A stretch of 64,000 bases of DNA from positions 1,011,449 through 1,075,448 of the forward strand of contig CP065011.1 of NCBI GenBank assembly GCA_016699795.1. Reading direction: 5' to 3'. A program made the position numbers and the translations under genes. Below the pieces are notes generated by a model, which saw nothing but the letters and a program-made list of their open reading frames with translations, ran no database searches and was not told the origin of the DNA. This DNA is from Candidatus Moraniibacteriota bacterium (GTDB lineage: Bacteria > Patescibacteriota > Minisyncoccia > Moranbacterales > GCA-2747515). The first letter of the stretch is position 1. Each line of letters begins with the position of its first letter. Positions 1 through 30,428 of this stretch are shown in pieces.

Positions 1-272
1 CGTGGTTTGGAAATAATGTGGAAAATACTAATAAAAAAAGTTATCCTATCGTAGAAAATAGAAAGTTAGGAAACAGCTCTTTTCAATATATTAAGAAGGT
101 AATAAATGATTCTGAATATTCTTTTGTTGATCACGCATATCTCATATCCAATGAAAATAGAGTATTCATGATAAAATTCCGAGAAAAAGAAGGTCCTGAA
201 AACTGGCAATACGATTATTCTTCCTCTCTTTCAATATTCGAAACTTTCGTGAGTTCATTGAAGTTTCTTTAG
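1..272 (+). CDS. 3' part of an MKQLSTR-family secreted protein paralog; 5' end lies upstream of the window
   Basis: The frame is open from position 3. The C-terminal 50 aa (..DHAYLISNENRVFMIKFREKEGPE.WQYDYSSSL.IFE.FVSSL.FL) are about 90% identical to the C-terminus of ORF 565-1212. The same downstream sequence follows it (gaagactat.acaaggttcatcttatgaggattttta). Confidence 0.6.
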   Translation, partial: WFGNNVENTNKKSYPIVENRKLGNSSFQYIKKVINDSEYSFVDHAYLISNENRVFMIKFREKEGPENWQYDYSSSLSIFETFVSSLKFL

Positions 273-510
273 AAGACTATTACAAGGTTCATCTTATGAG
301 GATTTTTATTATAATGACTGTCGGAATAACTAAGAATATAAGCGTTAAAAAAGATACGAAACAAAATTGCTCAAAACATTGTTTTGAAAACTGGTTTTCC
401 AGAGTAAATCTTTCTTTGATTACCTTATTCGGATGTAATGGTTAGTTGATAGGCTACCGACGATGACCCATGGACTCAGTTTGACACTGGATATATGACT
501 ATCAAAAAAC

Positions 511-539
511 TTGACGTAAAGCCATATTTTAGGTATATT
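511..539 (+). promoter_or_regulatory. sigma70-like promoter (TTGACG-17 nt-TATATT) upstream of the MKQLSTR gene; the same sequence recurs at 26273-26301 and 27420-27448
   Basis: The -35 and -10 hexamers have a 17-nt spacer, about 25 bp upstream of ATG 565. The whole leader is conserved at three loci. Confidence 0.5.
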
Positions 540-564
540 TTTCGTACATTATTTTAAATACCTT

Positions 565-1212
565 ATGAAACAACTCTCGACCCGAACCATATCAATTATT
601 TCTCTTATAGCCATTGCCTTTCTAGCATTAGGAGTCTTTGCAATGCAGAAAATTTACAATACCCCACTTCCTGTTGTGGAGAATGAGAAAACAGAGACTC
701 AAGAAACTCAAGAAAAGAATGAAGAAACTATTACTGAAACTATTGATACATCGAATTGGAAAACTTTTCGAAATGAAGAATACGGATTCGAAATGCAAAT
801 TCCTAGTGATTGGAATATTGAAAAAATAGGACAATCAAAAATGTTTATGATTAAAAGAGCGCCTATTGATAGTAATAATAAATTATATTTTACTATTGCT
901 CTAATGGATTCAAGTAAAGATGTACAATCTTGGTATGCAGATAATATAGAAAATCCAAGAAATCAATATAATGATAATTATGACATTATTGAAGAGAATA
1001 AAAAAATAGGAAATAATTTTTTCTATTATTTAAAGAAAATTTCCGACGACCTTGAATATTGGTACATTGATCACGCATATCTCATATCCAATGAAAATAG
1101 AGTATTCATGATAAAATTCCGAGAAAAAGAAGGTCCAGAATATTGGCAATACGATTATTCTTCCTCTCTTCCAATATTCGAAGCTTTCGTGAGTTCATTG
1201 AGGTTTCTTTAG
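565..1212 (+). CDS. MKQLSTR-family signal-anchored secreted/membrane protein, copy 1
   Basis: N-terminus MKQLSTRTISIISLIAIAFLALGVFAMQKIYNTPLPVVENE (hydrophobic anchor) is shared by ORFs at 17119, 26327 and 27474. The acidic linker is followed by a variable domain. Confidence 0.75.
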   Translation: MKQLSTRTISIISLIAIAFLALGVFAMQKIYNTPLPVVENEKTETQETQEKNEETITETIDTSNWKTFRNEEYGFEMQIPSDWNIEKIGQSKMFMIKRAPIDSNNKLYFTIALMDSSKDVQSWYADNIENPRNQYNDNYDIIEENKKIGNNFFYYLKKISDDLEYWYIDHAYLISNENRVFMIKFREKEGPEYWQYDYSSSLPIFEAFVSSLRFL

Positions 1213-1317
1213 AAGACTATGACAAGGTTCATCTTATGAGGATTTTTATAGAAATAGAGATTCTCTCAGGTGAACCAAAATGGTTCATTAATAAATCACA
1301 CAAGAGGAGTTATAGTC

Positions 1318-28193: not shown

Positions 28194-28303
28194 ACCTTTT
28201 CTCGATTACCTTATTTGAATATGATTGGGTAATCTATGAAGCGGTAATATCCGTTTCTCAAAAAGCAATTGTTTTTTGACAATTTGAAAGAGGAGTTTTT
28301 TCC

Positions 28304-29002
28304 ATGAACATGCTAATGAAGACTGTGCTATACACACTTCTTTTCTTATCTAATATGGGAGTATATGCCGGAACAGATGAATGCTATGGATATAAATCTA
28401 CAACGAGTCATTTTGCGTGTGGTGAATATGGCAATTGTGTATGGTGGGCTGCATATATGCGTCCGGATATTGCTAGGGTTATAACGGGAAGTGGTTGGAA
28501 TGGTGGAGATTGGTACGCTAAACTTAAGGGAACGATTCCAGTTGGTTCCGTTCCGGAAGTTGGTGCAATTGTGGAATTTGAAGGCCACGTTGCGTTTGTT
28601 AAGGATATACTGGACGAAGGAGCATTCGCTGTATCAGAAATGGATTATTATGGGCAGTTTGGTTCGGGCGTACAATATGCCACATACACTCCCAATGGTG
28701 ATGGGACCTATCAACGAAATAATGAATCAAAGAAATGGACCCTCAACGGTTTCATTTATGCTGAAGATCCGGCAGTTATCCCTGGCAACACTTTTACGGT
28801 ACGTCGGGTAGGTAACTATGCTTGGCATCCTGCAGACAGTTCGTGTATCAATGCAAAAAATTGGTACGGACTCAATAGCGATCGAAAAATCGTACGTACG
28901 TACGACGATAGCCAAGTATGCCAATGGATCTACGAAACACTCTACCCACAAGAGGTAAGCTATAATGCACTCTTCGGAAATGCTAATGCGTGCTATCAAT
29001 AA
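28304..29002 (+). CDS. secreted CHAP-domain peptidoglycan hydrolase, copy 3
   Basis: Catalytic Cys in GNCVWWAAYMRP and His in EGHVAFVKDI. Signal peptide. AGAGGAG RBS. Confidence 0.8.
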   Translation: MNMLMKTVLYTLLFLSNMGVYAGTDECYGYKSTTSHFACGEYGNCVWWAAYMRPDIARVITGSGWNGGDWYAKLKGTIPVGSVPEVGAIVEFEGHVAFVKDILDEGAFAVSEMDYYGQFGSGVQYATYTPNGDGTYQRNNESKKWTLNGFIYAEDPAVIPGNTFTVRRVGNYAWHPADSSCINAKNWYGLNSDRKIVRTYDDSQVCQWIYETLYPQEVSYNALFGNANACYQ

Positions 29003-29034
29003 GACGCAAAACGACCATTTGAGAGGTGCTAATC

Positions 29035-30339
29035 GTGAAAACGAAACGATTCTTTGAAGTAGTAATTACTTCCATTTTCCTCTTTGCTTTCGCAAGCGTT
29101 TACGCTTCCGATTGCGGAGAATTCGCAACTATCTCTGTTCCAAGTTCGGGCGGAGGATATGTGAGTGGAGGCGATGGCTACATCCCACCCCAAAATCCAA
29201 CTCCCACAGACCCTGTCAATCTTACCCAAGATACTGACATTCTTGGTGCTGACGGCAATGAACTCTATGCTGGACGTGACTCAATCCTTTCTGGAATGAA
29301 AGTAAAAGTCCGCGTTGCAGTGCAAGCTGAAGGAGGGGATGCAGGAAACTGGAAAACGAGAAACGATGCCGACACTATAGACATCGCTTACTCCGTAAGT
29401 TCCAATGATGGTCCTTGGACTCAGTTTGATACTGGGTACATTACCATTTCTAAACTTGATGAAGGAGTTACTATTACAGAAACGAAAGAATACACTATTC
29501 CAAATGGCATCTCTTCGATTGCATTTCGCACAGAAACCGATTATCGAGATGAAGTCGAAGAATATGATGAAGGAGATAATACCAGTCGCGTAGAACGATT
29601 TGAGATTTCAAATCTCAAACCTGACTACAGCATCACTGATGTTTTCTTCTCTGATCCCAGTACAGGAGCCATATACCGAAATGGTGCAATACTCTTAGAA
29701 GATAGAGAGTGGTATCCCTATTGTGAGATAATGAGCACAGGAGAAATCAATGCTCCTATCAACGTAGAAGTTTCTCACCGTATGGATGGAACAGAAAGAG
29801 ATACTGATACGCTAGGAATAGATGATATTTCTTTGGGACAAACATATCGTGAAGTCGTCTGGAGCAAATGGAAACTGGGAAATACAGGAACACGTACCTA
29901 TACGTGCTGTGTAGATTCCAAAGGTTGGCTTCCAGAACTCAATGAGAGCAATAATTGCAAGAGTGCACTCTTTACGATAGTTCCATGGAAACCTAGTATC
30001 ACCATCACTGATCTCTGGGTAGACTATGATGGAAAAGTAGTTCGTAATGGTGGAACAGGGAGCAAAGGGAAACGTTATCATCCTAATGTTACCTTCACCA
30101 ATACGGGAAACAAAACAATGTCGTGTGGTGCTGAAGCAAAGTACTACATTAATTCTAACTCCTATAGAGATAGAGACGGGATCGATCCTCTTTCCGTGAA
30201 TCAATCCGGACATGAGAGAGTCGAGAACGACAATATCAAACTTGGAGATGGAGGATGGAGATCATATCGTGTTACTATCCAATCTAGCTGTGGAGAGTTT
30301 CCTACAGTGGAAAGGACGATGAGTTTTTATCTTCGATGA
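29035..30339 (+). CDS. secreted CARDB-like repeat protein, copy 3
   Basis: Identical to copy 2 except for small patches (EGVTITE versus EGQTITE; a C-terminal 35-aa patch). Confidence 0.6.
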   Translation: MKTKRFFEVVITSIFLFAFASVYASDCGEFATISVPSSGGGYVSGGDGYIPPQNPTPTDPVNLTQDTDILGADGNELYAGRDSILSGMKVKVRVAVQAEGGDAGNWKTRNDADTIDIAYSVSSNDGPWTQFDTGYITISKLDEGVTITETKEYTIPNGISSIAFRTETDYRDEVEEYDEGDNTSRVERFEISNLKPDYSITDVFFSDPSTGAIYRNGAILLEDREWYPYCEIMSTGEINAPINVEVSHRMDGTERDTDTLGIDDISLGQTYREVVWSKWKLGNTGTRTYTCCVDSKGWLPELNESNNCKSALFTIVPWKPSITITDLWVDYDGKVVRNGGTGSKGKRYHPNVTFTNTGNKTMSCGAEAKYYINSNSYRDRDGIDPLSVNQSGHERVENDNIKLGDGGWRSYRVTIQSSCGEFPTVERTMSFYLR

Positions 30340-30392
30340 TTCTCGAGAGACTTCCCGCAAGGACGCGGGAAATACTGAAATGAATGAAGATG

Positions 30393-30428
30393 AACCAGTT
30401 TTGAAAAAGGCTGGTTTTTTTGTTTTTT
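30393..30428 (+). terminator. Rho-independent terminator (AACCAG..CTGGTT + T-run)
   Basis: Same structure as 3291-3322. Confidence 0.7.

Follow-up and report, generated by a model that had tools for sequence, protein, structure and literature searches.

Membrane-anchored partner proteins paired with secreted cell-wall hydrolases in repeated cassettes of a Moraniibacteriota genome

A 64,000-nt stretch of a Candidatus Moraniibacteriota genome (contig CP065011.1, positions 1,011,449 to 1,075,448; hereafter the window) was found to carry three intact copies of a gene cassette, in which a membrane-anchored protein with the leader MKQLSTR (hereafter the partner) precedes a secreted hydrolase with a CHAP catalytic domain and a CARDB module that is fused or separate. 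The linkage of partner to hydrolase and the anatomy of the cassette are well supported. In the reading that we consider best, and hold to be probable if only just, the cassette encodes a hydrolase/immunity pair that is independent of any secretion system and has swappable ends; an immunity function for the partner has about an even chance in our judgement, and the partner would, as far as sequence can tell, bind and inhibit the enzyme beside it. No description of this gene pair appears to exist, and it could be informative on the ways in which such bacteria attack other cells. Patescibacteria, also known as the candidate phyla radiation (CPR), make up a large share of bacterial diversity and many of them live attached to other cells, on which they use molecules that are almost unknown; here three intact cassettes stand within 64 kb of a ~1.2-Mb genome, and the pair recurs across the group.

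An earlier reading of this DNA from the sequence alone (hereafter the original prediction) had proposed that the leader protein be sought beside CHAP and CARDB genes in related genomes, and the anchored protein does adjoin CHAP or M23 genes, with or without CARDB, at ~25 related loci in other Patescibacteria, the CHAP or M23 hydrolase being the next gene after the partner. At loci found through CARDB homologues, some of them in a scan with an alignment of CARDB domain 1 only, an anchored protein of ~190-260 aa without family assignment precedes the hydrolase wherever the upstream sequence is readable, and where it is readable no hydrolase of the family was seen without an upstream partner. A metagenome scan seeded with the partner of cassette 2 (partner B) found a CHAP-B hydrolase as the next gene in 12 of 13 loci, the 13th not being resolved. 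Two proteins with the MKQLSTR leader and other ectodomains, P0096 (locus L025) and P0090 (locus L029), are each followed by an M23 hydrolase. Three distant proteins of other lineages resembling the family PsbP_2 were taken from a profile search: P0171 has a CHAP gene after it; P0161 lies between an M23 gene on its 3' side and, on its 5' side, a lipoprotein PsbP-like gene and another M23 gene; and the P0188 locus was uninformative.

Partner and hydrolase also diverge together. By all-against-all BLAST, clusters of partner ectodomains coincide with clusters of catalytic domains for type A (window copy 1, L005 and L011) and type B (window copies 2 and 3, L001 and L004). Among 11 type-B pairs the divergence of the partner is correlated with that of the hydrolase (r = 0.74, Mantel p ~4e-4), and in 55 of 55 comparisons identity is lower for the partner than for the CHAP core (mean 0.39 versus 0.55). 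Additionally, about six partner genes stand without a hydrolase (window 26327, window 18-272, L005 2-538, L007 1295, L017 1-453 and L026 3313). The original prediction had taken the MKQLSTR protein for a hypervariable anchored surface protein; it is indeed variable and anchored, but it is not merely a surface protein, as it has a PsbP/Mog1-fold ectodomain whose type matches the catalytic type of the next hydrolase for the two CHAP types known from several loci.

Anatomy of the cassettes

Self-comparison of the window recovers the three repeated secreted cassettes that had been claimed, and their host is a CPR bacterium (Moraniibacteriota), as had been suspected. Their features are as follows.

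18..272, + strand: type-A partner-gene tail, 84 codons, 5' of cassette 1; a relic, or a gene cut near the window edge
395..564, + strand: 5' arm of cassette 1, with a sigma-70-like promoter and a 53-nt CARDB relic (462-514)
565..1212, + strand: partner A, signal-anchored, predicted PsbP/Mog1 fold, 215 aa (IPN70_04715)
1213..1317, + strand: structured intergenic hairpin, then a strong Shine-Dalgarno sequence AGAGGAG (fold -34.6 kcal/mol, z = -6.6)
1318..3237, + strand: hydrolase A, with Sec signal, CHAP-A domain, glycine linker and CARDB (Pfam CHAP 2.5e-8, CARDB 2.6e-13)
2092..3324, + strand: 3' arm, copy 1, comprising CARDB module and two-hairpin terminator (from repeat identity)
16844..17118, + strand: 5' flank and arm of cassette 2, with the 3' end of the membrane-protein gene 15616-16929 and the promoter TTGACA-17-TATATT
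17119..17838, + strand: partner B, 239 aa, cassette 2
17839..17962, + strand: structured intergenic region, hairpins then Shine-Dalgarno sequence (z = -2.6)
17963..18685, + strand: hydrolase B (240 aa), a secreted CHAP-B protein extended C-terminally by ~100 aa (Pfam CHAP 1.5e-9; matches P0104)
18709..20022, + strand: CARDB protein with its own signal peptide (IPN70_04790; Pfam CARDB 1e-13, 3 stretches; matches P0001)
20023..20116, + strand: two-hairpin terminator, copy 2 (from alignment of the three copies)
26327..27022, + strand: partner C, 231 aa (IPN70_04825), orphan; identical to P0083
27128..27316, + strand: chimeric relic open reading frame (ORF), an M23 hydrolase start joined to a partner-B gene tail
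27304..27473, + strand: 5' arm of cassette 3, with promoter 27420-27448 (score 11/12) and CARDB relic 27371-27423
27474..28193, + strand: partner B', 239 aa, cassette 3
28194..28303, + strand: structured intergenic hairpins, then Shine-Dalgarno sequence (-31.5 kcal/mol, z = -3.7)
28304..29002, + strand: hydrolase B', secreted CHAP-B, 232 aa (Pfam CHAP 2.6e-9; P0099 is 100% identical)
29026..30339, + strand: CARDB protein, copy 3 (Pfam CARDB 4.4e-13)
30340..30425, + strand: two-hairpin intrinsic terminator, copy 3 (terminator match 30392-30417; z = -3.3)

Some details of the original description had to be changed. Copy 1 is not a three-gene set: its CHAP and CARDB parts form one ORF joined by the glycine linker, while in copies 2 and 3 and in L001 the CARDB part is a separate gene with its own signal peptide. 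Copy 3 is one cassette as described, yet it holds two MKQLSTR genes (26327-27022 and 27474-28193) and the chimeric relic ORF. As to gene starts, the hydrolase A ORF opens with a GTG at 1270, and we take ATG 1318 as the likely start because the L005 homologue (93% over the catalytic part) begins MQRLSF; the NCBI start of IPN70_04790 lies 3 codons downstream of the start at 18709.

Searches with Pfam hidden Markov models upheld the CHAP and CARDB assignments in all three cassettes. CHAP (PF05257; gathering cut-off 26 bits) matched the three hydrolases at 34.7, 38.6 and 37.9 bits (E 1.5e-9 to 2.5e-8), and CARDB (PF07705; cut-off 22.7 bits) matched at ~50 bits (E 1e-13 to 4e-13) in 2-3 stretches per protein, three of them in the stand-alone copies, the repeats closing with an E-x-NE-x-NN motif. 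The catalytic cysteine and histidine could be read from the sequence in both CHAP types (GNC(T/V)WWAAY and GHVAFV in CHAP-B, QCNCTSYVAY and GHVAWVES in CHAP-A), and the hydrolases are putatively active on peptidoglycan. Neither they nor the CARDB protein has an anchor, and all carry Sec signals that look cleavable. The 65% amino-acid identity given for the CHAP proteins of copies 2 and 3 was reproduced, and the copy-1 CHAP has no BLAST similarity to them, in agreement with its description as unrelated.

The CARDB protein had been seen as an independent adhesin, and this view was not sustained. In most of its homologues the 437-aa protein corresponds to a C-terminal extension of a CHAP or M23 hydrolase, and relatives of CHAP-B carry PKD, ricin, CARDB or no module at all. 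Because relatives fuse CARDB to the enzyme, or have PKD, ricin or nothing in its place, we regard it as a swappable, presumably surface-binding appendage of the hydrolase, and the functional core as a two-gene pair rather than a three-gene set. Exact look-ups of the CARDB protein of the window and of P0001 returned no record. A different kind of fusion was seen in P0113 (from an ENA contig of 3550 bp), which joins an M23 catalytic domain to a ~80-aa C-terminal stretch that is 96% identical to the tail of the copy-3 CHAP-B protein, so that the C-terminal extension of CHAP-B is itself a shuffled module.

For the partner, no Pfam family scored above threshold. Partner A matches PsbP_2 (PF18933) at 23.3 bits, below the 27-bit gathering score, and partners B and C gave no PsbP_2 match in the Pfam scan; sub-threshold matches (11.8-23.2 bits) were found in 6 of 10 further partner types, and distant relatives at loci L030 and L031 exceed the cut-off with 30-34 bits. 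An AlphaFold2 model of the type-B partner 27474-28193 (50-sequence alignment, confidence score pLDDT 81) places a transmembrane helix at residues 6-32 and a disordered, acidic linker at 31-51, and has a confident alpha/beta domain. The PsbP/Mog1 fold was obtained for two partner types modelled separately, and the N-terminal helix and tether predict that the ectodomain faces outside. Partners B and B' have near-identical leaders and ectodomains of 46% identity. Comparison of the type A and type B profiles aligned the leader and first strand alone, and a common ancestry of the ectodomains accordingly rests on the predicted fold and the sub-threshold Pfam matches.

For the MKQLSTR protein, a search of 5.8 billion proteins returned 78 homologues, all unnamed, and a library of 1.84 billion representatives only 45 matching clusters at E < 1e-10. 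The MKQLSTR leader precedes at least 10 types of ectodomain in metagenomes. Leaders are alike within a lineage and differ from one lineage to the next; in genome JTS-AC323, for instance, all five of the five partners seen start M[NT]KKSI[AV]FLSIF. A distant Patescibacteria lineage (L033-L035, from GCA_002773575.1 and two metagenome contigs) has the pair twice in tandem at 2049-5402, one of its partners being a lipoprotein (lipobox AVSGC) rather than helix-anchored; the mode of tethering thus varies while the pairing is kept.

Signals for expression were found at the expected places of an operon. A strong sigma-70-like promoter, TTGAC[AG]-17-TATATT, lies ~52-54 nt before each partner ATG (TTGACG at ~511-539 in cassette 1). 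The spacers between partner and hydrolase form stable hairpins (z = -2.6 to -6.6) and end in a strong Shine-Dalgarno sequence; copies 2 and 3 each form a first stem, from different sequences, and the copy-2 spacer (17839-17962) is 83% identical to 28199-28298. This hairpin may be an attenuator or a processing site that sets the partner-to-hydrolase ratio, with the hydrolase lower. Rfam gave no match in the 5' arm or the intergenic hairpins. The two-hairpin terminator after CARDB folds as had been claimed (z = -3.3), and promoter, spacer and terminator together would fit one transcription unit per cassette.

Homogenised ends and relics of exchange

The near-identical 3' module reported for the three copies was confirmed by self-BLAST and a repeat finder, with pairwise blocks of 99.35%, 96.1% and 87.5% identity. 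The first of these joins 2092-3324 to 29194-30425 over 1233 nt, the second joins 2092-3324 to 18877-20116, and the third joins 17859-20173 to 28199-30481. In a three-way alignment, a single 26-nt patch (29461-29488) is the only difference between copies 1 and 3 in the 3' module; a donor for it was sought in the window and was not found. Copies 2 and 3 are 100% identical over ~1150 nt (~18640-19790), after which copy 2 has a diverged patch (~19800-19900, 53-68% identity) toward the 3' end of the CARDB gene. Differences between the 3' modules are thus grouped in patches, and that of copy 2 resembles an allele in the M23-CARDB protein of another genome (L002). A diversity-generating retroelement was considered as the source of the copy-2 patch and rejected, as the differences are not adenine-specific but affect every base, and some codons are swapped synonymously (AGA to CGT, for example); no reverse-transcriptase domain was found among the window ORFs scanned with Pfam.

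Sliding identity along the cassettes defines three zones. A 5' arm, from ~-170 to +130 around each partner ATG, is 85-98% identical; a core composed of the partner ectodomain and the catalytic domain falls to 35-75%; and a 3' arm of CARDB and terminator has long tracts of 100% identity. The original prediction had the 5' genes as strongly diverged, which is correct for most of their length but not for the 5' end of the partner gene, which is homogenised too. In self-BLAST, the 5' arm of cassette 1 (395-684) matches that of cassette 3 (27304-27593) at 91.7%, and the region around the start of cassette 2 (16844-17276) matches 26049-26484 at 87.5%. The passage from core to 3' arm is abrupt, from 35-75% to 100%; uniform divergence after duplication is thereby ruled out, and either gene conversion of the ends or replacement of the core is required. 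The pattern is that of cassette ends homogenised by gene conversion while the middle diverges.

Remnants in the window point to earlier exchanges between cassettes. The tail at 18-272, either such a remnant or a gene cut near the window edge, is 70% identical to partner A (565-1212), its translation matching the type-A C-terminus, and overlaps a DNA repeat (127-309 versus 1067-1249) of 96% identity. The chimeric ORF 27128-27316 begins with an M23 stub, SFSAFSAESIRTVTGFYYPIG, that shares 81% identity with the start of the L007 M23-CARDB protein (its signal peptide and first residues), and then jumps into the tail of a partner-B gene; the repeat 27225-27340 versus 28102-28217 is 93% identical. 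Partner C is 62% identical to P0096, which is followed in L025 by an M23 type-1 hydrolase. Because this homologue adjoins an M23 gene and an M23 stub lies 3' of partner C, we regard partner C as an orphan whose cognate M23 hydrolase was deleted. Additionally, an in-frame 53-nt relic of CARDB domain 1, DDPWTQFDTGYMTIEKLD, is present at 462-514 and at 27371-27423 (compare 29407-29459) with a score of 46 against a shuffled maximum of 28, and the -35 box of the partner promoter begins inside its last codons (~511 and ~27420). The orphan partners, the M23 stub, the mosaic patches and the P0113 chimera together represent orphan cassettes and recombination between conserved segments.

The three copies are not an obvious assembly artefact. 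Each has unique flanks and private differences, the same proteins are found in the NCBI record of a Candidatus Moraniibacteriota metagenome-assembled genome (P0001, P0083, P0085, P0099 and P0104), and the same arrangement was met in independent assemblies. Metagenome-assembled genomes from short reads tend to break within the CARDB module, which is consistent with multiple near-identical modules in those genomes too.

Interpretation and comparison with known systems

In the mechanism that we favour, each cassette would be an operon consisting of a sigma-70-type promoter, the partner, a hairpin with a strong ribosome-binding site, the hydrolase, the CARDB module and the two-hairpin terminator. 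In the partner, an N-terminal membrane anchor is followed by ~25 residues of acidic, disordered tether and by a PsbP/Mog1-fold domain that is predicted to lie outside the cytoplasm, and the hydrolase (CHAP type A or B in the window, several M23 types in relatives) carries a Sec signal for secretion. The ectodomain would be specific for the neighbouring catalytic domain, which it would bind and block at the producer's membrane-wall interface, making the partner a putative self-protection (immunity) protein, while CARDB, or PKD or ricin in relatives, would steer free hydrolase to another cell's wall, be it that of a host bacterium or of a competitor. The near-identical ends (promoter and leader; CARDB and terminator), kept so by gene conversion, would serve as recombination arms, so that specificity and catalytic domains would be swapped as one linked unit.

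Five observations favour immunity as the role of the partner. The organism has its own peptidoglycan, as the Mur ligase, MurG and FtsW genes downstream in the window mean that it builds one; about six partners persist without a hydrolase and the reverse was not seen; the partner changes more quickly than the enzyme; a lineage has a polymorphic repertoire; and Tsi3 and Tli4, which are immunity proteins, have this fold. Marks of conflict-type evolution are present as well, in the polymorphism, the rapid change of the partner, the exchange of cassettes and the partner genes left as orphans. The anatomy points more specifically to an effector with a self-protection protein than to the host-interaction module of the original prediction, which is possible as well.

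Several points weigh against this interpretation. The PsbP/Mog1 fold is generic, serving in protein or ligand binding and common to PsbP, Mog1, LpqN, DcrB and the Eag chaperones, and the fold alone is therefore no proof of immunity. Type matching is loose for the M23 type-1 hydrolases, whose partners resemble one another only weakly (30-47 bits). The partner gene lies 5' of the hydrolase, and most described toxin-immunity loci have the immunity gene downstream. Finally, if short reads that map to more than one copy were used to polish a long-read assembly, the tracts of 100% identity might in part be overstated.

We extend the interpretation beyond the window only tentatively, with rather less than even confidence. 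On this extension, the cassettes would belong to a widespread system of antagonism or host attack in Patescibacteria that requires no secretion machinery of its own, in which Sec-exported CHAP or M23 hydrolases with swappable lectin- or immunoglobulin (Ig)-like targeting modules are matched by tethered PsbP-fold immunity proteins, ends homogenised by conversion shuffle the pairs, and orphan immunity genes are kept. Were this so, no effector-immunity system would have been described for these episymbionts before, and it would give a handle on how host walls are breached.

The alternative that survives best, which we nevertheless consider unlikely, is that the enzymes are autolysins for remodelling the organism's own wall during growth, division or pilus passage, with the partner as a tethered activator, dock or spatial regulator. 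Linkage and co-divergence would suit any specific binding partner, the best NCBIfam match of CHAP-B is the division hydrolase PcsB (though far under the cut-off), and the cassettes stand amid envelope genes (glycosyltransferases, PMT-like proteins, Mur ligase, MurG and FtsW). A housekeeping system would not, however, be expected to be multi-copy and polymorphic, with at least 10 partner types on one leader, nor to leave many relics and partners that outlast a lost enzyme. The faster evolution of the partner in every one of the 55 comparisons suggests conflict-like divergence instead, and the enzymes carry swappable lectin- or Ig-like modules (CARDB, PKD, ricin). Such modules are typical of enzymes aimed at a surface from outside.

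Closer to the original prediction, and in our view improbable, is a surface adhesion or host-attachment complex in which the partner is an anchored dock, CARDB an adhesin and CHAP the opener of the host wall, the diversity reflecting host range or immune evasion. CARDB, PKD and ricin are binding modules, an anchor with a flexible tether would display the ectodomain outside the membrane, and CPR bacteria are often episymbionts. The idea is a poorer fit, since variation lies in the partner ectodomain and catalytic domain, and CARDB, the supposed adhesin, is the most conserved and most homogenised segment, the opposite of what adhesin diversification would give. Moreover, CARDB is dispensable, since CHAP-B stands alone or with other modules in many relatives, and the hydrolases and the CARDB protein lack an anchor, their Sec signals looking cleavable.

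That the repeats arose from faulty assembly, or that the cassettes were carried in by a prophage or mobile element (as an endolysin module, for example), is very improbable: the modules do lie 9-10 points in guanine-plus-cytosine (GC) content above their surroundings, accessory genes (the AbiE pair, an AAA_14 ATPase and DUF3800) lie between the cassettes and short-read assemblies break in CARDB, but each copy has its own flanks and differences, the arrangement recurs in independent assemblies, and the GC offset is repeated in genomes with other background GC, with partners at or below background. A prophage or endolysin module was rejected for want of viral relatives and of phage domains nearby; neither the partner nor the CARDB module has a relative among 2.9 million viral contigs (IMG/VR), and no integrase, transposase or phage structural domain was detected by Pfam in the long ORFs flanking the cassettes, a scan that covered not every ORF in 1-31 kb. 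The hydrolase and CARDB genes are 4-10 GC points over the local background in every genome examined (L001, L002, L004, L005, L007 and the window), the offset being ~9-10 points in the window, L001 and L002, and partner genes are at or under background. A foreign origin was rejected as the cause, given that the offset is the same across genomes of differing background GC; this suggests an effect of amino-acid composition rather than recent transfer.

A literature search found no named system that fits the cassettes, as the original prediction had also supposed, and no account of a PsbP-like partner for CHAP or M23 hydrolases, be it in Patescibacteria or in other organisms. By analogy, the cassettes would work most like the peptidoglycan-hydrolase effector-immunity pairs of type VI secretion systems (T6SS) combined with targeted bacteriolysins, while being a member of neither group. 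T6SS pairs of this kind include Tse1-Tsi1, Tae4-Tai4 and Tse3-Tsi3 (PMC3391265, PMC3695027, PMC3792639, PMC6099711). Similar to these, a wall-degrading enzyme adjoins a small type-specific protein of the wall-containing compartment, a location that is predicted in our case. CHAP enzymes are papain-like cysteine peptidases, as are the Tae amidases. In contrast, the cassette proteins have ordinary Sec signals, the partner is encoded upstream and tethered by a membrane helix, and the hydrolase bears lectin- or Ig-like targeting modules; no T6SS component exceeded the threshold when the long ORFs of the window were scanned with Pfam. Tsi3 has the same fold as the partner but no sequence homology to it (12% identity), and an immunity role in the cassettes is a matter of inference.

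Bacteriolysins, or class III bacteriocins, such as lysostaphin, zoocin A and enterolysin A are Sec-secreted antibacterial enzymes of M23 or CHAP type with an N-terminal catalytic and a C-terminal wall-targeting domain, and their producers are protected by FemABX-like modification of the cross-bridge (Lif/Epr, Zif). The cassettes likewise pair a secreted CHAP or M23 domain with a C-terminal CARDB, PKD or ricin module. Unlike in bacteriolysins, the neighbour is a PsbP-like anchored protein and targeting would be by CARDB rather than SH3b; no FemABX-like domain was detected by Pfam in the cassette genes and long flanking ORFs.

Polymorphic toxins (of the contact-dependent inhibition, Rhs and LXG types) consist of a conserved part and a swappable toxic part linked to a cognate small protein. 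Arrays of orphan cassettes and recombination between conserved segments are shared with them, but the polarity is inverted here, with the variable catalytic domain N-terminal and the conserved CARDB C-terminal; the partner lies upstream and has itself a conserved N-terminus and variable C-terminus, and the cassettes lack a dedicated secretion or delivery domain.

Inhibitors of wall hydrolases such as Ivy, MliC/PliC, PliG and IseA/YoeB of Bacillus subtilis block the active site of the hydrolase. They resemble the partner, in the role suggested for it, as periplasmic, membrane-bound or secreted proteins that protect the wall. They differ in generally acting on foreign lysozymes or housekeeping endopeptidases, in not forming matched polymorphic pairs and in having other folds. 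One lysozyme inhibitor is described in PMC5507604. Proteins of the PsbP_2 family (PF18933) and other PsbP/Mog1 proteins (BT_1490, LpqN, DcrB, EagT6) have the same predicted fold as the partner, and distant relatives above the PsbP_2 threshold also adjoin hydrolases, but the partners in the window are under the cut-off. No function or hydrolase linkage was found for the PsbP_2 family in the literature.

If the partner is an immunity protein, the effector-immunity principle would reach a lineage without T6SS or a type VII secretion system. A large uncharacterised family of PsbP_2-like anchored proteins would gain a function, and the enzymes would become candidate host-range determinants, or lytic agents with defined inhibitors. 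The arrangement of conserved arms around a variable core is also a clear case of concerted evolution that shuffles linked specificity pairs.

Genes around the cassettes

Between copies 1 and 2, Pfam searches of the long ORFs assigned GT2 and GT1 enzymes, a GDP-mannose dehydratase, an epimerase, a methyltransferase and large membrane proteins, and PMT-like proteins are among the neighbouring envelope genes. Between cassettes 2 and 3 lie an AAA_14/DUF4143 ATPase gene (23206-24453) and an AbiEi/AbiEii toxin-antitoxin pair (24700-25978), from which we conclude that the space between cassettes has gathered defence and accessory genes. No family could be assigned to the 306-aa ORF at 20689-21609 on the minus strand.

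Some minor observations concern the same region. A DUF3800 gene (3693-4280) 3' of copy 1 is flanked by 142-nt direct repeats (3418-3559 and 4503-4644, 93% identity), and a DUF3800 gene is also near a partner-M23 cassette at L028. The ORFs 15616-16929 (437 aa) and 30660-31670 (336 aa) resemble the N- and C-terminal parts, respectively, of one further paralogue, a third beside the 725- and 758-aa membrane proteins encoded at 11169-15609. Fragments of the 3' end of gene 15616-16929 recur at ~21686-21816, 22327-22432, 24429-24623 and 26043-26132, and a stretch 3' of copy 2 recurs at 24554-24725. This scatter of fragments suggests segmental duplication followed by decay, or insertion into the membrane-protein gene. 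Downstream of cassette 3, a PD-(D/E)XK or Cas4-like nuclease with a DUF7376 domain is encoded at 31804-32949 on the minus strand, with no CRISPR array seen. Further along, the minus-strand ORF 59363-61348, whose 661-aa product has no Pfam match, contains an in-register tandem duplication of 261 nt (59878-60399) with 99% identity.

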